From IMG/VR virus record IMGVR_UViG_3300040771_000271, positions 85,236 to 129,922 of that record: 44,687 bases of DNA. One strand, 5' to 3'. Under the pieces are notes generated by a model. The model was not told the DNA's origin and did not search any database. It saw only the letters and a program-made list of their open reading frames with translations. The translations under genes were made by a program, and so were the position numbers. This document shows, in pieces, positions 2,790 to 39,015 of this stretch. This stretch comes from a virus. The first letter of the stretch is position 1. The number at the start of each line of letters is the position of its first letter.

Positions 2790-3548
2790 TTAATCTGTTA
2801 TTTCTACTTCGTAATTTATTAATGCTTGATAAACTTGCTCAGTTATTTGCCCATTCCATTTGTTAGCTAATTCTTTTGCTAAATTTTCTTTAAAAGTTTT
2901 GTAAACTTGAAAAGCCTTTAATTCTAATGTAAAATAGCCTAAATTTTTAATTTTTTTATTTACATTACAACTTACCATAAATTTACCATCCTTATGTAAA
3001 TATACACCTATTAGGTAATTTCCTCTTCTGCTCTTACCTTTTACAAAAAAGGAATTAACTTCTCTTGGTACAAAACAACAAGTTTCAGGACTGTAAATTT
3101 TATTTCCTTTAACTAGAATGTCTTTATCAAGGTGCCAACCTTGCATTGTTTCAGGGTTGTAGTTTTCTTCAAACCATTTAGCAAAGTTCTGAAAATTATA
3201 CCATTCTTCACAAACACTTGCTTCCTTATAAGAGGTAAATTCTTTTTTATATATTTCACTACAACCTCTTTCTAACATATTTCTCCAAGTTGTATAAGAT
3301 TTAAAATGTTTACCACCGTCTTTTGTTTTATATTTACCAACACCTATAAATCCCACACTAAAAATTAAGGGGTGGTAAGGGTTTTTAACTTTCCCTCTTA
3401 CTAAATGACCATATTGAACAGTAAAAATATGACCACTATCAAGTTTTACATCTGTACCATGAATACCTTTATAGTCTACAACCTTAACTTTATCTCCTTC
3501 AAGAGTTAGATATTCTTCACCTATTCTTTCTAGATTTTTCATAACCAC
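2790..3548 (-). CDS. HNH-type homing endonuclease with C-terminal AP2-like DNA-binding domain
   Basis: W.NM..R, VCEEWYNFQNFAKW, HLDKDILVKGNKIYSPETCCFVP..VN, then GV...LGYF (AP2-like). Confidence 0.8.
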   Translation of the reverse strand: MVMKNLERIGEEYLTLEGDKVKVVDYKGIHGTDVKLDSGHIFTVQYGHLVRGKVKNPYHPLIFSVGFIGVGKYKTKDGGKHFKSYTTWRNMLERGCSEIYKKEFTSYKEASVCEEWYNFQNFAKWFEENYNPETMQGWHLDKDILVKGNKIYSPETCCFVPREVNSFFVKGKSRRGNYLIGVYLHKDGKFMVSCNVNKKIKNLGYFTLELKAFQVYKTFKENLAKELANKWNGQITEQVYQALINYEVEITD

Positions 3549-5575
3549 TTGTTTTTAAGTATTTTAGTCCAATAATCTACTGTTTCTTTTTTATCTCCTG
3601 AGTAAGATGTCCACTTACAAGGATAACGTTTAATACAATCATCTAAACGGGCTCTAACACTTAACTTTTTATTTGTCTCACGAGAGTAAGTAAGCCAACA
3701 TTCCCAAAAGCGATACATATCAACAGCTACAAAAGTTATGGCAATTTGATAACCAAAGAAAACAAAACTCCACATAGGACTCCATTCAAATCTATAGTTA
3801 TCTCTTTCCCATTTCGTTTTCCATCCAAGTTGAACAAAGTCAAAACCTATTTTTTTAGGTTGCGCAAAAGAACCCTTTAATTTCTGTTCATACAATTCAT
3901 CAAAAGTCCTAATTGTACGTTTATAAGTTTGCTCTCTTTCATTATACTCTCTAACTTCTTTAATTTCTTTTAAAGTAGCTTCTATAGCTTTTTTAGGAGT
4001 AGCTTTTTTCCATACACGAGGAAAGAAATAAGGTGTTCCTATGGCAACTTTACCAATATACACTATTGGAATTGGCGGTCTAAAAGGTGAGAAGTATACA
4101 GACATCCACTCAAAGTATCTTAAAAACCAATATAATTTTGAATATTTGTACTTAATCATTATATAATCTTTTTATATATTAAATCCCTTTCTTCCCAAGA
4201 ACTTTCTAAAAATTTTTTAGTTATTTCATCTAACATGCCTTGATGAACAAAGTCGAGACTATCATTTAAAGTATCTTCATTGTCTACAACTTTATATCCA
4301 CAGTCTTGTAGATGTTCAATCATTTCCTCATCTTCAATTTCGCCTAAAAAACTAAAAGAGTTTCTACGACTTAATTCCCAAACTAGATCATCTACAGAAG
4401 CATCTTCAACAGTATCACAGTTGTCAAGATGAATTAAATCTAAATGATACTTCGCATATTTTTCAAGAACATCTGTATCTACTTCATCTAGAAAATCACT
4501 TACATCAACAACTATTTCCACATGACCATCTTCAAGTTCTTCTACATTATCAAAAACTTGCTTACCAACCCATCTAATATCTTTCATAATCCTTCTATTT
4601 CTGATATAAAATCTCCAGAGTTTAGCCTCACTCTTTCTCTAATTAAATCAATAATCATATCTTGTGTAATTGTAAAAACATTTTCAATATCTCCTGCGTA
4701 TTCAAATTCTTCATCAGACCAAGTATTGTTATCTAAATAATATCTTATTTTAATTTCCATAATTTACATTATATTTATTTTTAATTCTATTAAATCACTT
4801 GGTTTTGCCACTCTATACTTCTTTACATTATGCCAAGTAAAAGTATAAGGACAATCATCCATAAATTCATACTCAATTTCAACCATAATATTAAAACCGA
4901 AGAGCCTCTTTTTAATATACCAATTTCCTGTTAATTTTACATCTGTCATAATTAATAACTTTCTAATACTATTGTTTTAAAATCACGTTCTCTTTGCTCT
5001 AACTTAGCTTGTTCTAAAGTATCAAATGTCCCTAAGTGAATACAACAGTTCTCTACAAGTTGACTTCCAACCTCTCCAACATAAGTTAATGGATTAAAAT
5101 ACTTTCTTTCCAATTGAAATAAACTATATCCCATCTTCATATATTTCGAGCAGTTCTTCCGTTGTTTTACATGTAGGTATTAAGTCTCGCGTCCTGTATT
5201 TTCCATCCGAATATGTTAAAGTATTTTCCGCAACAAAAACTGAAAAAGAAACTGCAAATTCCCTAACTATAAGAGAAGCAATAGTAACATCTGTTTCTGT
5301 ATTATCATCTGATAAATGTCCTAATAAACAATGTCTTAATTTGTCTTCTAATTTCATAATTTTTTTATTTTAATTTGATGATTAAAACTGTTTCCATTAC
5401 CACTAGCCATCAAAGAATAATTTTCTTCAAAGGCATTTGTAACTTCACAATAACCTCCGTCTTGTAAAGTGATTTCTACTAATTCTTCCATTTGATTTTC
5501 TAACCAATCATTTAAAGTGAAAGTATTATCATGATGATATTCTTTTGTCTCCCAATAAAAAGTACCTGTTTTCAT
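3539..5575 (-). other. Run of small hypothetical ORFs (3539-4159, 4159-4587, 4764-4949, 4952-5140, 5124-5357, 5354-5575)
   Basis: Tightly packed or overlapping minus-strand ORFs downstream of a TATATTTG promoter at ~5707-5714. No recognisable family. Confidence 0.65.
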
Positions 5576-8267: not shown

Positions 8268-8669
8268 TCACTCATAGTTTAATGTATTTATATTAATTGC
8301 TAATCCGTTCTCTATTAATCCGTAAATATCGAAGTGCCATTCTAGTAGTTTATCAACTACTCTATATTCCCACTTATCTAAATCATATTTATTTAAATCT
8401 GAATAGTAAAAATCAAAATGACTAATTAATATTTTTCTAGGCACAAACTTTTCTCCATTTACTTCAATCTCTTTTGTAAGGTCTGAAAGTGGGCGTAGGA
8501 TTGGTTTAAAGTACTCTAAATCCATAGGTAGTTTATCAGTTATTAAAAGTATTTGCCTCTTTTTTATTTCTATTCCTAAAAATACTTCTTCGCCTTGCAT
8601 ATCATCTGTGCAATACCCTTTCAATCCATAAGGCAAATAAGGTGCTAAATGTTTTAATTCTAATTTCAT
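8268..8669 (-). CDS. Conserved Bacteroidota-phage hypothetical protein
   Basis: MKLELKHLAPYLPYGLK...KPILRPLSDL...WHFDIYGLIE.GLAI signature. Confidence 0.7.
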   Translation of the reverse strand: MKLELKHLAPYLPYGLKGYCTDDMQGEEVFLGIEIKKRQILLITDKLPMDLEYFKPILRPLSDLTKEIEVNGEKFVPRKILISHFDFYYSDLNKYDLDKWEYRVVDKLLEWHFDIYGLIENGLAININTLNYE

Positions 8670-21917: not shown

Positions 21918-22521
21918 TAATTAATTTATCTTTTAAAATATCTTTTACCTGTTCAAATGAAAATATACTGTATTCTCCAAACATATTATAGTAAGAATCA
22001 ATTCCAACATCCATAGATTTATATTTATGGATTTCTTTTACTACGTCGCTTTCATCTGCATGTAGATGTCCGTGTAAACTAATAGAACCATCATCTTGAT
22101 AATTCCAGTTAAACATGGGGTAATGAGAGCAACATATAATTTGCCCCTCTATATTTAATTCTAAATAATAGCCAATATACAATAACTTGTCAAACTGACA
22201 ATCCTTTTCTACCTTTTTTAATTTACCTATGTTACAGTGATTACCAAATAAGATGATTACATTCTCGCAAACAATATCACTTAAAAATCTAGCGTATTGT
22301 TTTTCAGCCATCATTGTATCTCCCAATAAAACTAACAAGTCATTCTTACCAACTTTAGCGTTAATTTCATCAGTAATGTATTTATTCATCCACTCTAAAT
22401 TTTGAAAATTGCGTCCAAAATCTATAACCGCTTGATGATCTAAATGTAAATCAGAACTGAAGAAAATATTATTAATCTCTAAAGTTTGTTTTGGATAACT
22501 TGTTAGTATTTTAACTTTCAT
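21898..22521 (-). CDS. Calcineurin-like metallophosphoesterase
   Basis: SDLHLDH, LGD, GNH, HYP, HGHLH, DVGID. Confidence 0.88.
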   Translation of the reverse strand: MKVKILTSYPKQTLEINNIFFSSDLHLDHQAVIDFGRNFQNLEWMNKYITDEINAKVGKNDLLVLLGDTMMAEKQYARFLSDIVCENVIILFGNHCNIGKLKKVEKDCQFDKLLYIGYYLELNIEGQIICCSHYPMFNWNYQDDGSISLHGHLHADESDVVKEIHKYKSMDVGIDSYYNMFGEYSIFSFEQVKDILKDKLIIGRHEN

Positions 22522-22524
22522 AAT

Positions 22525-23787
22525 TTATGATTCTTTTTCTTCTACTTCATTTTCTTGGTCATCACTTTCCATCTTAATAAAATTTGGTGACTTCAATTTA
22601 AATATTTCATCAGTTTCTCTTATTCTAACACAAATACCTTCATCAATCTTACAATCACTGTAACTTTTGTTCAGATAAGTTTGTTGTAAATAGCCTAATA
22701 AACTGCTATCATCTACAACCATTTCTTTAATCTTACCTATAAAATACTCTTGAACATGATTTAAACCATATTTTTCACAGTATTTTTTTACTTGTTCCCA
22801 AGAAAACTCTATAACATTACCATCAATTGAAGTTTGAGTGATTCTATAAATATGAATCCCGTACTCTTGATTGTAAGTAAATTTATCTCCTTGAATACCT
22901 TTACCTACTATTTCTGCATATATTGAAACTCCTTTTTCTACTGTATGTCCAATCTCTTTATAAGCTCTTGCCCAAATATCAGAAGTATAGTAGCTTGGAT
23001 TTGGAGTTTCCCATTTGTTAGTTTGAGATTCAATCCCTTTAGGAAGTCTTCCTCTAGGTTTGCCACTCGACCATATAATACCATATTCTGACGTTGGAGT
23101 TTCCGCACCAAAAAACTTAAAAACTTTTTCTTTAAAAGCCAACTGTTTATTTATTAAAACATTAGATAATATTAAAGAAGAACCATGTAACTTTCTTGTT
23201 ATAACTACTTCAGTTTCTTGTGTAAATTTATCTTGATGCTTTACAAAATGCTCTGTTTCATGGTGAAAACGAAACTGTGACTCTAAAATTAAGTCTTTAA
23301 GTTTATTTGTCTTTACTGTTTTTTGACCGCCTTGACTAGACTCCCTAACTGCAACAACATACTTCTCACAAATAGAAATACCATCAATATCTGTAAACTC
23401 ATCTCCTAATTTTAACCAACTCACATTATTTAAAAAATAAAATAGACTATCTAAAGGAAGTAACATACCATCTGATATAATACCTCTTAATTTTATACTT
23501 TTAACTCTAGACTGCTTAGAACTTATAAAACCACGTTTTGTGGTATCTAAATTGTTTTCTTCTTTATCATACAAATTATTCATTTTACAATAATCAGCTG
23601 ATAATTTTGTGCCACTACAAAAGTAAAGCATTTTAGACCCAACTTGTGTTGTTTTAGGTACGACAACATTATTTCCATTTATCACTGTTCTAACAATCGC
23701 ATCTGCTCCCTCAATAGGAAACAAATCTTTAATCTCTACTACTGAGCAAGCGTAATTTTTACTTCCCTCTTTAATTTCTAATTTCAT
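22525..23787 (-). CDS. RNA ligase (Rnl2/DRB0094-like) with N-terminal OB-like domain
   Basis: N-terminal PIEGAD...RVK.IKLRG.ISDG.L.PL. Motif I RKLHGSS, YAEIVG, EGIC, FKLKS. Confidence 0.85.
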   Translation of the reverse strand: MKLEIKEGSKNYACSVVEIKDLFPIEGADAIVRTVINGNNVVVPKTTQVGSKMLYFCSGTKLSADYCKMNNLYDKEENNLDTTKRGFISSKQSRVKSIKLRGIISDGMLLPLDSLFYFLNNVSWLKLGDEFTDIDGISICEKYVVAVRESSQGGQKTVKTNKLKDLILESQFRFHHETEHFVKHQDKFTQETEVVITRKLHGSSLILSNVLINKQLAFKEKVFKFFGAETPTSEYGIIWSSGKPRGRLPKGIESQTNKWETPNPSYYTSDIWARAYKEIGHTVEKGVSIYAEIVGKGIQGDKFTYNQEYGIHIYRITQTSIDGNVIEFSWEQVKKYCEKYGLNHVQEYFIGKIKEMVVDDSSLLGYLQQTYLNKSYSDCKIDEGICVRIRETDEIFKLKSPNFIKMESDDQENEVEEKES

Positions 23788-29340: not shown

Positions 29341-29490
29341 ACCGCGATTGTGCGGTCACTATATCATAGTCCGAGGTAGCGTGCTGTTATTCAAATGAAA
29401 ACAGCCTCGTTTCTTAAAACCTTGTAGCCTGACCTTTCAGGCAGTATATGTCGATATTAATTTCACGTGTCGTTACATAGTACAAGGTTT
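29341..29490 (-). ncRNA. Candidate structured RNA(s) upstream of the HNH gene
   Basis: AAACCTTGTA...TACAAGGTTT closing stem with internal GCCTGA-AAGG-TCAGGC. Further hairpins GCTGTT/AACAGC, ACTAT/ATAGT and ACCGC/GCGGT. Confidence 0.45.
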
Positions 29491-29496
29491 ATATTT

Positions 29497-29925
29497 TTAT
29501 TCTACTAAGTGCTGAAAAACTTCAACGATTTTTGTTTCAGAAACGGAGGGAATAGAAAAATCCATTGTTCCTTTCATAGTAATAACAGTATTTTCATAGG
29601 CTTGTTTAGCGTTGTTTGCTTGAACTAGTATATATACATTTTGTCTTTTTTCCTTTCCAGAATCTTCGTCAAAAAACAGTAGTGAAACTTTCGACTTAAA
29701 CCACTTATCAGTATCTTCAAAAGCAGTAATCTCTGAATAGTTGGTGAGTTTAATATTTACTACTTTAAAATCTTCTCCTACATAAATCTTCATTTGTTCA
29801 TTAATATTGCTTTCTGCTTCACTAAATGATAAAGCACTAACTATGTAACTTTCTGTCACTACTTTGTTAACTCCTTGCTCGTCTGTTTTTCTAAATTTTA
29901 CAGAACAATCGAAATATTTATTCAT
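29497..29925 (-). CDS. DUF4494-like protein (Bacteroidota)
   Basis: F.C.V......G..K.VTE.Y.V.ALSF.EAE...WFK.K....DE.SGKEK.....LVQA...ETKI..VF. Confidence 0.8.
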   Translation of the reverse strand: MNKYFDCSVKFRKTDEQGVNKVVTESYIVSALSFSEAESNINEQMKIYVGEDFKVVNIKLTNYSEITAFEDTDKWFKSKVSLLFFDEDSGKEKRQNVYILVQANNAKQAYENTVITMKGTMDFSIPSVSETKIVEVFQHLVE

Positions 29926-33120: not shown

Positions 33121-33163
33121 GTTACCACATTAGTTACGTGTATGCACAAGTTACGGCAAATAC
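33121..33163 (+). other. Putative attI-like primary recombination site
   Basis: gttaccacattagttacgtgtatgcacaa-GTTACGGCAAATAC. Core GTTA at 33150 with no upstream hairpin arm; extra GTTAC direct repeats at 33121 and 33133. Confidence 0.5.
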
Positions 33164-33561
33164 TATGTTTTGTTTTCATAAGTCAATTCAGTTCCTGTGA
33201 GTGCGAAATATAAATTTTGTAGCTGATGAACTGTTTTTATTTTAATAAACTCAAATGATTCAAACATAAATTCCTCTACATCCTCATTACACATATGAAT
33301 TTTTACATCTCCAAATTTAAAAGCTTTGCTCGCTTGTATTTCTTGTGGGTCAGAAGTAAAGTAGCTTTCTGCATTAAATTTGCGTAGCCATTCTTCTGTT
33401 AACGGTATTGGTTTAATATCTTCATATAAAATAATTACTCTACAAGGTCCAGAAGCAACTGCTCTTTTTTCTAATAACTCTAATATTTGTTCAGTTCTTG
33501 GTATTCCGCTTCCTAAGTCTAATCTTGAAATAAAATTCCCAATTCTTAATTCATTTTTCAT
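33163..33561 (-). CDS. Cassette 1 gene: conserved phage hypothetical (ELRIGN...PIPLTEEWL...VHQLQNLYFALTG.EL)
   Basis: ORF track; recurrent Bacteroidota-phage family motifs. Confidence 0.75.
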   Translation of the reverse strand: MKNELRIGNFISRLDLGSGIPRTEQILELLEKRAVASGPCRVIILYEDIKPIPLTEEWLRKFNAESYFTSDPQEIQASKAFKFGDVKIHMCNEDVEEFMFESFEFIKIKTVHQLQNLYFALTGTELTYENKT

Positions 33562-33592
33562 AACAATATTTTTAGTTTAATAATCCGTACTT

Positions 33593-33682
33593 GCCCTAAC
33601 ATACGCTTGTAGCTATATGCAGAAACTCCCTGCTTTTATTCACGATTGCGGTGGCATACAGCTACAAGCTTTTCCGTTAGTA
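33593..33682 (+). repeat. attC-like site 1
   Basis: GCCCTAAC-ATAC-GCTTGTAGCTATATGC...GCATACAGCTACAAGC-TTTTCC-GTTAGTA. Confidence 0.8.
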
Positions 33683-33688
33683 GCAATG

Positions 33689-33937
33689 TTAGAAACCCTG
33701 TTGACGAAGACGATATTCTTTACAAAGCCTACAATATTTATTAAGGAAAATATGACCACATTCTTTTTCTTCTATTTCTTTTTGACTATCTTCTACTTTT
33801 TCGACTACTTTGTAGGTTTCATAATCTAAATTTGTCTCTTTAACTATCTTATTTTTTAAGCTAAAAATAAACACAGCTACTAACAGCACATAAGCGCAAG
33901 CAATTAATTGGGTATTGAATTTAAATTTTGTTTTCAT
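33689..33937 (-). CDS. Cassette 2 gene: hypothetical protein starting inside attC-like site 2
   Basis: 82 aa. The hydrophobic ACAYVLLVAV segment is encoded by the attC arm; C-terminal CGH...C..C. Confidence 0.6.
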   Translation of the reverse strand: MKTKFKFNTQLIACAYVLLVAVFIFSLKNKIVKETNLDYETYKVVEKVEDSQKEIEEKECGHIFLNKYCRLCKEYRLRQQGF

Positions 33938-34013
33938 TTTGTTGTTATTTATAATTAATATAATTATTGTTTTTTGTCAGCAATTGCCTTCGCCTATGTG
34001 CGAAACGTTACCA
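33878..34013 (+). repeat. attC-like site 2
   Basis: TACTAAC-A-GCACATAAGCGCAAGCAATT...AATTGCCTTCGCCTATGTGC-GAAAC-GTTACCA, with an AT-rich loop. Confidence 0.8.
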
Positions 34014-34019
34014 GTAATG

Positions 34020-34244
34020 CTACAGTAGCGGTAAAATATAATCTGATTTATTGAAACATTCACTTATGAATTTCGCATGTCTTAACGCTTCTGATTTTTC
34101 TGTAGTATCAATTATTTCATTACTTGTAGTTAAATATGGTATTCTTGCTATTTTATATTTTGCACCTAAACTTGTGCCTATTATATTCCAAGCATTCTTT
34201 GATTCAGAATGAACAACCTTTGTATTTATATTTGGATTTTCCAT
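34020..34244 (-). CDS. Cassette 3 gene B: hypothetical protein
   Basis: 74 aa ORF; stop codon begins 13 nt after the G of the GTTA core. Confidence 0.7.
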   Translation of the reverse strand: MENPNINTKVVHSESKNAWNIIGTSLGAKYKIARIPYLTTSNEIIDTTEKSEALRHAKFISECFNKSDYILPLL

Positions 34245-34247
34245 AGT

Positions 34248-34544
34248 TTATTTAGTAACATCATTAAAAAAATCAGGATAAATATTTTTTATCATTTCTT
34301 CAGCATCATCTTGCATTTTAGTCCCTTTAACAGCAATCCATAAAGCATTTGATAAATAAGATAAATGATTAACACTGCCTCTTGTTAGTGGATTAATTAA
34401 ACTTTTAAATTCATAATTAAGATTGAACATTTTACCCTCTTTTGTCTTATTAAATTTTGATAGCCAATCATCATGAGAAACACTACTGGTAACACCTGCT
34501 ATACTCAATGCCTCGTTTTCGGTATTATTAACTTCTGTTTTCAT
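34248..34544 (-). CDS. Cassette 3 gene A: hypothetical protein starting inside attC-like site 3
   Basis: 98 aa. EALSIAGVTSS is encoded by the attC arm and TAAC box. Confidence 0.7.
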   Translation of the reverse strand: MKTEVNNTENEALSIAGVTSSVSHDDWLSKFNKTKEGKMFNLNYEFKSLINPLTRGSVNHLSYLSNALWIAVKGTKMQDDAEEMIKNIYPDFFNDVTK

Positions 34545-34615
34545 AAGTTCGTTTTTTTTAGTTAGAATAATTCGTTTTCATAAATCGGCACTAAGTATAG
34601 CACCATCCGTTAGGG
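34487..34615 (+). repeat. attC-like site 3
   Basis: TGGTAAC-ACC-TGCTATACTCAATGCC...GGCACTAAGTATAGCA-CCATCC-GTTAGGG. Confidence 0.8.
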
Positions 34616-34623
34616 ATAACCGC

Positions 34624-34905
34624 CTATTGGAGTAGATTAAAATTACCGATAGACTCTCTTACATCTTTGTAATATGCTTTTTTATCGTGATTTAAGCACC
34701 TTGCATTGTAAGAATCACTACCTTGTTTATTATGAAGTTCTTCTCCTAGTTCCGTGAGTGCTGAAACAACTTCATCCACTATCAAAAATGCTTTTCTTTT
34801 TAAATCTGTTTTAGCATAATTTGAACAATTTTCCCATAATGCTTTTGATATTTTACCGTTGTTGACTTTTTCTAAAATCTCTTTTGCTTTTTCTAAATGT
34901 GTCAT
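34624..34905 (-). CDS. Cassette 4 gene: hypothetical protein
   Basis: 93 aa ORF bounded by GTTAGGGATA and TATCCCTAAC. Confidence 0.7.
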   Translation of the reverse strand: MTHLEKAKEILEKVNNGKISKALWENCSNYAKTDLKRKAFLIVDEVVSALTELGEELHNKQGSDSYNARCLNHDKKAYYKDVRESIGNFNLLQ

Positions 34906-34940
34906 TTTTATAAATTTTGATTGATTAGTATTTCGTGGTA

Positions 34941-35027
34941 TATCCCTAACACACGATAAGGTCTATTTGCCGAATCTACCCGCCACAACCTATAACAGCT
35001 AGTAGCAAGGCTACGATTACGTTATTT
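34941..35027 (+). repeat. Degenerate attC-like site 4
   Basis: TATCCCTAAC box is present but lacks a matching right arm. A second CCTATAAC box, a short GTAGC/GCTAC hairpin and GTTA follow. Confidence 0.5.
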
Positions 35028-35431
35028 ATGATATTTAGATTTTGGTTTTTCAAAGTAATTTCCATTTTTATCAGTAATAGTAATCAATGGCTCTATAACT
35101 TCATTTTTAAGCAACCATTCACTTCTCATTACATCTTTAATTTCGTGATTATTAGTCACTATTTCTATTCCTCTTTCTATTTCTTGCATTGATTTTGCTA
35201 TTTGCGCTCCCATAGGAATATCTGCGCCTACAATTAATACTTTTTTCATTCTTATCTTTTATAAAATTTTATAAAATGTTTCTCCCTCTAAAATAATTTC
35301 TTCAATAATATTTCTGTTTATTAAATTGTAAGTGTCTATTTGAATTCTCCAAAACCAACAGGCTTTATCTGTTGATAGTGTTTTACCTTTATAGTTTTTT
35401 AAGGTGTTTATAACCTCTTGAATATCCATAA

Positions 35432-37629: not shown

Positions 37630-39015
37630 CTAGTTATTATAGTTTTCTAATTCTTTTTTGTTGCACTTGTCAAAACCATAGTATTCGAGAAATAAATTTT
37701 GATTTAATTATTTTGGAAAGAAATCTTCTAACCAATTATTTTTTCTAGCCCATCCAAAAGCTCCGCTCGAACCTATTTTAAATTTAAACCTATTTGTGTA
37801 TTTTTTTGCCTCTGTTTTACAATTCTCGTAATTCCAATAATTTCTTGATTTTCTAGTATCTATCATATGTGAACAAATTTCCTCCGCCCATCCTTTTGCA
37901 AAGGCTTTGCTGTAAATACTATTAGCTTCTTTTATAAATTGAGAACGTAAAGAGTATTTTAATGCTTTTTCATGGCATCTTTCTTTAGTCCAATAATTGT
38001 TAAGTTTTTTAAGTTCAACCATATGAGAACATACCAAACCTATCCATTTATTTTTTAAACACGCATTATAAGCATTTTCATTGTTTAAAATAAATTCTTT
38101 TTTAGTAGTATATTTTAACGCCTCTAATCTACATATTTCAAAAGTCCATTTTATTTTTCCTCCTCCTAATCCCCCTGCTTTATTTTTATTAAGGATGCAC
38201 TTACCTAATTTTTTATATTCTTCGACTATTAAATCCTCCAATTCGGAAGCGTCCTCTTTTGAATAAAGTGTATCACTGATTAACTCAAAAACAGGTTTAC
38301 TGTTAGTTTCTAACATATGTTTATAAACTGAACTTTTTTCATCTGATAAATGGCTATTAAACCTCTTTTCAGGATTACACGTTAAACCAATATAAACACA
38401 ATCATCATAAAAAATTGCCTTATAAATATACCTTTTTTGTATATTACCTAAAGGAATCATATGACTACATATTTCTTCAAGCCATCCACTTCTATGTGCA
38501 ACAACATAAGCAGAAGGGTTGTTTTCTTGAAAATCTTTCTTGTGTTTATACTTACTTGCTTCTTTCGCACAATTTTCTTTGTTCCAATACCTATTAGGTT
38601 TTCTACCTTCAACCATATGAGAACAAATCTCATTTAACCATCCTTTTTTATGAGCTATCCTATAAGCTTGTCCACAAGATTTTAAAAAGTCGATTTTTCT
38701 AGTGTATTTTATAGATTCCTGTTTACATAATTCTAAAGTCCATTCAAATTTTACCATTTTACAATTAGTTTTATTAATATGGGTAAATATAATAAAACTT
38801 TTTTATATATGAAAACTAATTAATTTATATTAAATAATTTTTTATGTTGTTGCACTGTAATACCCGTAAACACTCATTTCATTTGTTAAATGGTTATAAC
38901 TCGCAACTCTTGACTCATAACTGACTAAATCCGAGTAATGGTCGCCTTCACTATTTACGTATTCGTTTACGTGGTGTTTTGCTGTATTGTTTAAATAAAA
39001 TGTTTTATGTGTCAT
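37630..39015 (-). pseudogene. Small phage gene apparently split by the GIY-YIG insertion
   Basis: 5' part 39015-38842 MTHKTFY...LVSYESRVA...YGYYSATT*. 3' part ~37698-37630 NLFLEYYGFDKCNKKELENYNN* has no start codon. Confidence 0.55.
37708..38757 (-). CDS. GIY-YIG homing endonuclease with five tandem ~50-aa repeats
   Basis: YIY...VYIGLT.NPEKRF..H...E...LN. Repeats W..E.C..EA.KY....F......AY..A...GW...IC.HM, two before and three after the nuclease domain. Confidence 0.85.
   Translation of the reverse strand: MVKFEWTLELCKQESIKYTRKIDFLKSCGQAYRIAHKKGWLNEICSHMVEGRKPNRYWNKENCAKEASKYKHKKDFQENNPSAYVVAHRSGWLEEICSHMIPLGNIQKRYIYKAIFYDDCVYIGLTCNPEKRFNSHLSDEKSSVYKHMLETNSKPVFELISDTLYSKEDASELEDLIVEEYKKLGKCILNKNKAGGLGGGKIKWTFEICRLEALKYTTKKEFILNNENAYNACLKNKWIGLVCSHMVELKKLNNYWTKERCHEKALKYSLRSQFIKEANSIYSKAFAKGWAEEICSHMIDTRKSRNYWNYENCKTEAKKYTNRFKFKIGSSGAFGWARKNNWLEDFFPK

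Follow-up and report, generated by a model that had tools for sequence, protein, structure and literature searches.

The stretch of viral DNA analysed here (the window, 44,687 nt) carries at 33150-35024 an array of four gene cassettes without an integrase, whose five small ORFs all lie on the minus strand. The initial annotation took these units for integron cassettes inserted as circles, which raises the questions of whether an array without its own enzyme belongs to an integron-like system, and of what kind of recombinase would move its cassettes. We put at roughly 80% the probability that the array is a member of an integron-like system that occurs both in Flavobacteriaceae chromosomes and in uncultured phages (probably phages of Flavobacteriia).

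The orphan array and its genes

Sites H1-H3 (Table 1) are strong, clear and strand-specific imperfect hairpins, as the initial annotation had described, and a pattern scan of the 98.5-kb phage record found three such hairpins and no more. H4 did not fold as a site. The lengths measured core to core replace the 90-136 nt first reported. The outer boxes of each hairpin are indeed alike only over TAAC/GTTA, and the eight cassette-end boxes described in the initial annotation were recovered with the complementarity given there (12/14, 9/9, 12/13 and 10/10). The first of these pairs joins the terminal half-site to 33587-33600; as also described, its core is bare: the last cassette's end box stands before it, and no hairpin follows. 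The last pair involves H4, whose 3' core and box (34941-34950) are still complementary to 34609-34618. An ORF at 35022-35249 takes its stop codon from the TAA within the TAAC of H4. H4 looks like a short hairpin fused onto the 3' arm of another site.

Table 1. Features of the cassette array, in window coordinates
Feature	Position	Strand	Description
Terminal half-site	33150..33163	-	bare TAAC on coding strand (GTTA on plus strand, 33150-33153)
ORF of cassette D, 132 aa	33163..33561	-	phrog_10066, function unknown
Site H1 of cassette D	33597..33679	-	short type, 83 nt core to core
ORF of cassette C, 82 aa	33689..33937	-	no Pfam or PHROG family
Site H2 of cassette C	33881..34010	-	long type, 130 nt
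Cassette B, two ORFs	34020..34544	-	98 aa and 74 aa
74-aa ORF, cassette B	34020-34244	-	phrog_38014
98-aa ORF, cassette B	34248-34544	-	start codon inside H3 loop
Site H3 of cassette B	34490..34612	-	long type, 123 nt
ORF of cassette A, 93 aa	34624..34905	-	no family
Site H4, degenerate	34947..35024	-	78 nt; read in the coding direction, the array's first site

A covariance model (R1) built from the sites of relatives, with H2 and H3 in its seed and H1 outside it, matched the window on a single strand, with E values from 1e-18 to 2e-5. On the minus (coding) strand only, the seed members H2 and H3 scored 103 and 84 bits; the non-seed site H1 reached 37.3 bits (E 2e-5) there, compared with 10 bits for its plus strand. 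H4 was weak (15.5 bits, E 0.4, over 34981-35036). The window contains seven GTTA...TAAC pairs with at least five perfect extra bases, against 2.8 on average and at most 7 in shuffled sequence. Isolated complementary pairs are not rare; the signal is the interlocked chain of pairs at the hairpin borders. On the coding strand, the box pairs of cassettes B, C and D have G.T at position 7, whereas the pairing of the cassette A boxes ends after six bases and so lacks it. The full RYYYAAC/GTTRRRY consensus on both sides was found in none of three window sites. No Rfam family or tRNA was matched in the region, and the region had no DNA-level match to cultured phage records.

The initial view that the cargo belongs to phage gene families held up: two ORFs match PHROGs, and homologues occur inside and outside arrays. 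The 132-aa ORF has homologues at 529 or more viral loci; among the best 80 of these, about 11 lie near sites and the rest away from sites, and one homologue is itself a cassette, in contig G004. The 74-aa ORF has a 78%-identical homologue in two contigs (L019 and L020), outside any array. Pfam searches with the cassette ORFs gave sub-threshold noise only, and scans with the 98-aa ORF found no homologue. The start codon of cassette C lies inside the H2 loop, and the H2 3' arm codes for a hydrophobic N-terminus. The scan with the 93-aa ORF of cassette A found a single partial homologue; the C-terminal half of this ORF has 83% DNA identity to a cassette gene in the array of contig L176, where the copy has a different end box, complementary to the start of its own cassette.

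In agreement with the initial annotation, the 98.5-kb record, which represents about 70% of the phage genome, had no match to the tyrosine recombinase family PF00589. The 50 nt past the bare core are unrelated to the leader conserved in relatives, and the 86-aa ORF that follows is not detectably a recombinase remnant (BLASTP E 24; hhalign probability 0.3%). With neither a recombinase nor the conserved leader, the array, carried by a large uncultured phage, is an orphan member. No sign of recent cassette movement was seen in this phage, no near-identical relatives of it were found, and none of its cassette genes was present in five phages related to it through their exonuclease.

Sites and cassettes in related phages

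Related phages, reached through the neighbouring exonuclease gene and the recombinase described below, carry arrays of one to at least 11 sites, and the same architecture recurs in dozens of contigs. On the coding strand, a site runs from a TAAC-G core through a 4-nt 5' bulge and a stem of about 20 bp, in which one G.T pair is invariant, to a loop whose length varies from about 10 to 90 nt, and ends in T-GTTA. A box of some 10 nt comes next, then one or more genes and, last, a second box that is complementary to the first and nearly always has G.T at position 7; the hairpin stands 5' of its gene. The AAC/GTT core and the hairpin are invariant in the family. Matches to GTTRRRY (7/55 sites) and RYYYAAC (4/55) are few, bearing out the departure from GTTRRRY that was first noticed in the window.

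Across 35 adjacent site pairs, the boxes at the two ends of a cassette formed a mean of 5.0 Watson-Crick pairs out of 6, compared to 2.3 within a hairpin's own partners and 2.2 in random pairings, and position 7 was G.T in 28 of the 35. The stems also covary, with compensatory changes in 18 of 24 pairs among the 34 sites compared. The coding-strand hairpin was the more stable one in 46 of 55 sites (p = 7e-8), and the model's 41 hits near homologues of one cassette gene lay without exception on the strand of that gene. Of 36 long sites, 22 have a loop ATG whose reading frame continues through the 3' arm into the gene. The adjacent hairpins of one array have little in common except the core, while hairpins with 90-98% identity recur beside unrelated genes in different phages; near-identical hairpins (97.8%) were found with unrelated boxes as well as unrelated genes, which a single crossover point does not simply explain.

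Two contigs, L138 and L139, show 100% identity over 1434 + 1681 nt and differ by one 748-nt unit, a hairpin plus gene bounded by GGTAACGT; the junction identity is 8 nt, centred on the invariant core, and these bounds place the crossover in the 5' TAAC core. This one-unit, core-bounded difference and the box rule uphold the initial reading of the window as a cassette footprint. Similarly, a homologous unit is internal in contig L021 and recombinase-proximal in L038, with homology spanning one TAAC to the next. Covariation between the base 5' of AAC and the one 3' of GTT is seen across the cassette (24/28) and not within the hairpin (27/40). A cassette ordered gene-then-hairpin, with crossover at the 3' GTTA, was rejected because arrays end in a bare TAAC and because the upstream box of seven first sites is an orphan; both the L138/L139 difference and the L021/L038 homology, running from TAAC to TAAC, also contradict it.

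The linked recombinase and known systems

Arrays on about 15 related viral contigs terminate in a box, a bare TAAC and a conserved ...TATATGTA... leader, typically some 51 nt ahead of a recombinase gene. The ATG of a recombinase gene follows the bare core at 43-53 nt in nine loci and at 92-128 nt in five; in L014 the bare core is interrupted by the contig end. This leader-linked gene is co-directional with the array and encodes a 276-aa Xer-like tyrosine recombinase; contig G004 has two such enzymes (276 and 277 aa), each immediately 3' of an array. The cassette ORFs of relatives point toward the recombinase gene, beside the bare core and leader. It is this layout that sustains the initial proposal of reversed cassette genes; the spacer lengths from which the proposal was made do not. 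Relatives' cassettes include DNA methyltransferases. Many arrays, that of the window included, have no recombinase gene.

The catalytic residues R, K, H, R, H and Y are all conserved in the phage recombinase. Its alignment with VchIntIA falls into two blocks separated by 29 residues where IntI has 71, so that about 42 residues are missing at the position of the IntI insertion, and its scores against TIGR02249 were 154-169 bits (cut-off 265). The IntI-like host enzyme first proposed thus gives way to a small Xer-like cognate enzyme in related phages, with longer homologues in Flavobacteriaceae chromosomes. There, similar arrays lie beside the longer recombinases, and the system was found in 29 of 201 sampled Flavobacteriaceae genomes. 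A profile search of Flavobacteriaceae genomes told more than a pattern scan of bacterial genomes, which gave two relevant small contigs and no more. Among cultured phages, no relative of the recombinase exceeded about 33% identity. A scan with the single protein returned only itself, and relatives were retrieved with an alignment as query.

As in classical integrons and CALINs, the sites are imperfect hairpins with an invariant AAC/GTT core, and the position of the crossover in the core makes the two ends of a cassette complementary. Also shared are arrays of small, mostly promoterless accessory genes, a bare core with a distinct flank directly at the start of the recombinase gene, like attI beside intI, orphan arrays without an enzyme, and the existence of both chromosomal and mobile versions. 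The differences lie in the enzyme, which is a 276-aa Xer-like protein without the IntI-specific insertion, and in the site, where the 7-nt R-box consensus is lost and a cassette-specific box of about 10 nt with a fixed G.T stands instead. In canonical integrons the ORF precedes attC on the top strand and the bottom strand is recombined; here the hairpin is 5' of the gene, the ORFs are on the best-folding strand and point at the recombinase gene, and many sites provide the start codon of the next gene. The unpaired bases are on the 5' arm, the same arm as the proposed cleavage site, an arrangement opposite to that of canonical attC bottom strands. The carriers here are lytic-type phages.

The pdif sites of Acinetobacter plasmids are of the ordinary dif-like kind, 28-bp duplexes that alternate in orientation, and pdif modules are not known to have long folded hairpins with cassette-specific boxes or arrays beside a dedicated recombinase gene. 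The modules are genes flanked by XerC/D sites (PMC7399989), and are alike in being discrete, bounded by Xer-type sites and served in trans by host recombinases. On the folded attP strand of CTX-phi, Xer exchanges one strand pair, with replication resolving the product (PMC3442271); this is a precedent for Xer-like enzymes acting on hairpin DNA without the IntI insertion, although there a whole phage integrates at dif, with no gene cassettes, arrays or cassette-specific boxes. A further likeness is in Polaribacter phage P12002L, whose array, published as a CALIN within the IntI framework (Qi et al. 2023, PMC9892861), also has a bare TAAC end and no integrase. Its site P12002L_attC1 was called by HattCI and not by Infernal, and was not recombined by IntI1; attC2, which was recombined, is the bare terminal core plus flank (PMC9892861). 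P12002L_attC1 is built like the 49-nt short sites found here, including the loop TCGTTTTAATG at L012:7486-7534; it is flanked by methyltransferase cassettes and sits on the strand that encodes them. The P12002L paper mentions neither a cognate Xer-like recombinase nor a box rule nor a family (PMC9892861).

Alternatives, proposed mechanism and meaning

These likenesses could be taken to mean that the array is a canonical CALIN, with true attC sites left by, or served by, a classical host IntI: core, imperfect hairpin, cassette-end rule and site lengths are all attC-like, and HattCI predicted the P12002L family member to be an attC, which the published account assigns to a CALIN. We consider this improbable, since few sites satisfy GTTRRRY or RYYYAAC, the genes are oriented the opposite way, the array-linked recombinase lacks the IntI insertion and falls below IntI cut-offs, and the hairpin-type P12002L_attC1, on which Infernal made no call, is the one site on which IntI1 failed; moreover, IntegronFinder 2.0 reports almost no integrons in Bacteroidetes. 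Shuffling of promoter/stem-loop cassettes by recombination has been proposed in T4-type phages, and homologous or microhomology recombination between repeated intergenic stem-loops, with no dedicated recombinase, would fit both the many arrays without a recombinase gene and the near-identity of some hairpin types next to unrelated genes in different phages. It is nonetheless very improbable here: the L138/L139 junction identity spans only 8 nt with the core at its centre, neighbouring hairpins within an array are alike at the core and little else, and neither the box rule nor the tight linkage to recombinase and leader is expected.

Just as improbable is a role confined to RNA (processing, stability or translational control), in which end complementarity would close mRNA segments with no DNA recombination. 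It accommodates the G.T (G.U) pairs, which favour the transcribed sense, the loop ATGs that read through the 3' arm, and the constant placement of sites on the strand of the genes, but not the difference of identical contigs by one unit exactly at the core, the ending of arrays in a bare core adjoining a tyrosine recombinase gene, the recurrence of whole units at differing array positions or the covariation of the fourth core base across the cassette. An RNA role could exist alongside recombination, and the position-7 G.T bias and loop start codons would also fit one. Chance palindromes between small genes would supply about three complementary GTTA...TAAC pairs per window, but the comparative data already refute them: model matches are on one strand only, stems covary and the architecture recurs among contigs. 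Intrinsic terminators were ruled out by the absence of T-runs at the hairpins.

The comparisons establish how the sites are built and covary, the box rule, the linkage with the recombinase and the exact difference of one cassette between identical relatives. For the integron-like system itself, we infer which strand is recombined, by what chemistry, and that the window's array can be a substrate. The small Xer-like tyrosine recombinase would excise and insert hairpin-plus-gene units as circles, working on the folded coding strand with crossover in the 5' (T/C)AAC core; in the excised circle the two boxes would pair and lengthen the hairpin stem. New cassettes would enter at the bare core and conserved leader, just upstream of the recombinase gene. 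The window's phage record has either lost or never possessed recombinase and leader, and one of its sites has decayed. Further exchange at its array would then need a recombinase in trans, from a co-infecting relative or a host homologue of roughly 380 aa, and such action of an Xer-like enzyme is plausible. That the system is distinct and currently active, a gene-capture system parallel to integrons in Flavobacteriia chromosomes and phages in which an Xer-like enzyme recombines coding-strand hairpins at the AAC core, we hold to be slightly better than an even bet. To our knowledge there is no experimental precedent for a recombinase without the IntI insertion acting in this way on folded DNA, and our literature search found no paper describing phage cassette arrays with an Xer-like recombinase; the locus has the look of a phage equivalent of the bacterial integron that is largely undescribed and, in this case, lacks the enzyme.

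Integrons are seen as belonging to bacteria and as dependent on the special IntI insertion. If the proposal is true, the logic of the integron (folded hairpins, circular cassettes, an insertion site beside the enzyme gene) would operate with a plain Xer-like enzyme, offering a testable intermediate for the origin of integron recombination from Xer-type enzymes, and a class of cassette arrays missed by standard tools would become visible. Lytic phages would have a site-specific route for swapping accessory genes, and even those without the enzyme would gain and lose genes, such as anti-restriction methyltransferases, via recombinases acting in trans.

The array in the window and its phage setting

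The window belongs to an IMG/VR record of 98.5 kb that is ~70% complete and has ~28% G+C; the phage has no close relative among cultured phages. All sizeable ORFs of the window lie on the minus strand and include DNA polymerase A, both ribonucleotide reductase subunits, thymidylate synthase, a DnaB-type helicase, an RNA ligase and a GIY-YIG endonuclease; the window covers the part of a large lytic-type phage genome that encodes replication and nucleotide metabolism. At 37708-38757, a few kilobases upstream of the array, a 349-aa ORF carrying a GIY-YIG nuclease domain likely encodes a homing endonuclease.

Sites of the cassette array in the window
Feature	Position	Strand	Description
H1	33597-33679	minus	intergenic TAAC...GTTA hairpin, clear
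H2	33881-34010	minus	intergenic TAAC...GTTA hairpin, clear
H3	34490-34612	minus	intergenic TAAC...GTTA hairpin, clear
H4	34947-35024	minus	no single-hairpin fold
Bare core	33150-33153	minus	no hairpin

The eight boxes (cassette ends of ~10 nt beside the cores) listed in the initial annotation were all recovered where it had placed them, with the complementarity it had reported (12/14, 9/9, 12/13 and 10/10). For H1-H3 the better fold is that of the minus (coding) strand; H4 looks like a short hairpin joined to a 3' arm from a different site. R1, a covariance model built from the hairpin sites of relatives with H1 outside its seed, matched H1 on the minus strand only (E 2e-5).

GTTA...TAAC pairs with at least 5 extra complementary bases numbered 7 in the window against 2.8 expected by chance. 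Single pairs of this kind are not unusual in random sequence; what carries the signal is their interlocking into a chain at hairpin borders. Further pairs, at 308-993, 22231-22664 and 29472-29849, show perfect complementarity over 6-8 extra bases but have no family hairpin beside them and may be due to chance because the pair count falls within the shuffle range. A second small array was seen in the same virus record outside the window, on the opposite strand (G000:C1:1-1083). R1 matched it at 957-1083 (58 bits, CAAC...GTTA) and, with 38 bits, at 1-120, where the contig end truncates the site; the upstream box of the latter site (...gctatcataTAAC) is identical to that of the first site in the second array of the related phage G004.

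Site structure and the cassette unit

Phages sharing the neighbouring exonuclease gene show 60-64% identity there, and none of them carries the window's cassette genes. The related phage G001, a complete genome of 130.6 kb, carries no fewer than 11 sites built in the same way, in the corresponding position. In coding-strand order, a site consists of box, TAAC-G, 4-6 unpaired bases, 5' arm, loop, 3' arm, 1-3 bases, GTTA and box. Alignment of 34 long sites gave 24 consensus pairs, 18 of them with compensatory changes, and one invariant G.T in the stem. The coding-strand fold was the more stable in 46/55 sites (p = 7e-8); GTTRRRY was satisfied in 7 of the 55 and RYYYAAC in 4. In 35 pairs of neighbouring sites, the six bases past GTTA paired with the six ahead of the next TAAC at a mean of 5.0/6 positions, versus 2.2/6 for random pairings and 2.3/6 between the two sides of one site. 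Position 7 was G.T in 28/35 site pairs, with three or four further pairs beyond.

The window's hairpins are not terminators; T-runs are absent from them. A second role in RNA is possible: the loops of 22/36 long sites, H2 and H3 among them, contain an ATG whose reading frame continues across the 3' arm, GTTA and box to the cassette gene. Either of two frames is in use, yielding ...V-S-G-S... or ...L-L-x-A-V..., and in a G004 homologue of the 132-aa ORF the loop-ATG frame adds ~24 residues that are absent from the window's copy.

As to the mobile unit, four observations all indicate that a cassette comprises a hairpin and its downstream gene on the coding strand, with crossover in the 5' core. 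Arrays end on their recombinase side in a bare TAAC, and an orphan upstream box stands at seven first sites. A homologous unit is internal in locus L021 and recombinase-proximal in L038, with homology spanning TAAC to the next TAAC. Loci L138 and L139, from different samples, show 100% identity across 1434 + 1681 nt; the surplus in L139 is one 748-nt unit (hairpin, GTTA, box, gene, box), and the sole sequence repeated at both of its ends is GGTAACGT. At variant cores (CAAC/GTTG, found in chromosomes and in phage P12002L), the base beside AAC/GTT covaries across the cassette (24/28) rather than within the hairpin (27/40). From TAAC to GTTA, the hairpins at L010:1636-1725 and L021:5500-5589 share 97.8% identity, but their boxes differ and their genes are unrelated, a combination for which one crossover point does not account.

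The associated recombinase and its chromosomal counterparts

No tyrosine recombinase was found in three complete relatives of the window's phage. G004 encodes two (276 and 277 aa), each immediately following an array and sharing its direction, and a profile of these found 27 viral loci. Nearly all recombinase loci having upstream DNA carry same-strand arrays. In ~15 loci the array finishes with a box and bare TAAC, and a conserved leader (...TATATGTA...) comes next; the recombinase start codon (ATG) lies 43-53 nt past the core in nine of these and 92-128 nt in five, the core of L014 being cut by the contig end. The layout relative to recombinase gene and bare core matches intI-attI-cassettes, but the ORFs point toward the recombinase, which supports the earlier description of the genes as reversed.

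The recombinase keeps all of the catalytic R, K, H, R, H and Y, and is nearest to the XerA and XerC/D models, yet under their cut-offs. It aligned with Vibrio IntIA in two blocks separated by 29 residues versus 71 in IntI, and therefore lacks the IntI-specific insertion. In G001 (L010:4539-5768) a 105-aa N-terminal ORF is what is left of the array's recombinase gene, and a 278-aa ORF for an HNH-type endonuclease comes after it; a recombinase catalytic domain was not found anywhere in this complete genome. L047 (an Aequorivita MAG contig) and L049 have phage-type recombinase homologues (E ~1e-88 to 1e-90) with one in-frame TAA each, and in L043 and L047 the leader comes after CAAC with no cassette directly before it.

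Integrase-less attC clusters have been reported in 17 phages, among them Polaribacter phage P12002L, whose attC1 was detected by HattCI only and was the sole site that IntI1 failed to recombine (Qi et al. 2023, PMC9892861). The sequence in the primer table of that paper identifies P12002L_attC1 as a 49-nt member of the present hairpin-site family; it lies between methyltransferase cassettes in an array that ends in a bare TAAC. Integrons are almost absent from Bacteroidetes according to IntegronFinder 2.0, and a full-text literature search found no description of an Xer-like recombinase together with such arrays. Recombinase matches at E <= 1e-60 were present in 29/201 sampled Flavobacteriaceae genomes, mostly as ORFs of ~380 aa. 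Beside chromosomal recombinase homologues (10 kb or less away), the phage-derived site model detected arrays with as many as nine sites; their cores are mostly CAAC/GTTG, and the cross-cassette box rule is valid there also. In the two chromosomal loci worked through (L086 and L094), the ~380-aa recombinase gene is convergent with the sites, whereas the two are co-directional in phages.

Cargo and orphan status

Two of the window's five cassette ORFs have PHROG matches, of unknown function. The 132-aa family occurs at 529 or more viral loci; of the top 80, ~11 are close to sites, and R1 matches near its homologues were on the gene's strand in 41/41 cases. The 74-aa ORF has a homologue of 78% identity outside any array. 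The C-terminal half of the 93-aa ORF shares 83% DNA identity with a cassette gene in L176; the end boxes of the two copies differ, each pairing with the start of its own cassette, which points to selection for end-to-end pairing. Cassettes of relatives include DNA methyltransferases of C5- and N6-type. Two of them have ~80%-identical 5' and 3' untranslated ends (L010:2637-2723 and 3523-3594; L012:7530-7614 and 8450-8520) and the same boxes (cctgct/gcagg), and encode unrelated methyltransferases (N6-type, 262 aa; C5-type, 293 aa). In the G001 copy, a direct repeat, TTGATACGAAGAACGAA, also lies close to each end. These features suggest that the gene was replaced within a cassette frame.

The window's array is an orphan. 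Its 98.5-kb record has no tyrosine recombinase gene, the array lacks the conserved leader, and the 86-aa ORF after the bare core is not detectably a remnant of the recombinase. H4, the first site, is decayed; H1-H3 are still well formed and could be recombination substrates. The record holding L139, rated complete, has no recombinase homologue, so that cassette gain or loss with the enzyme supplied in trans seems possible.
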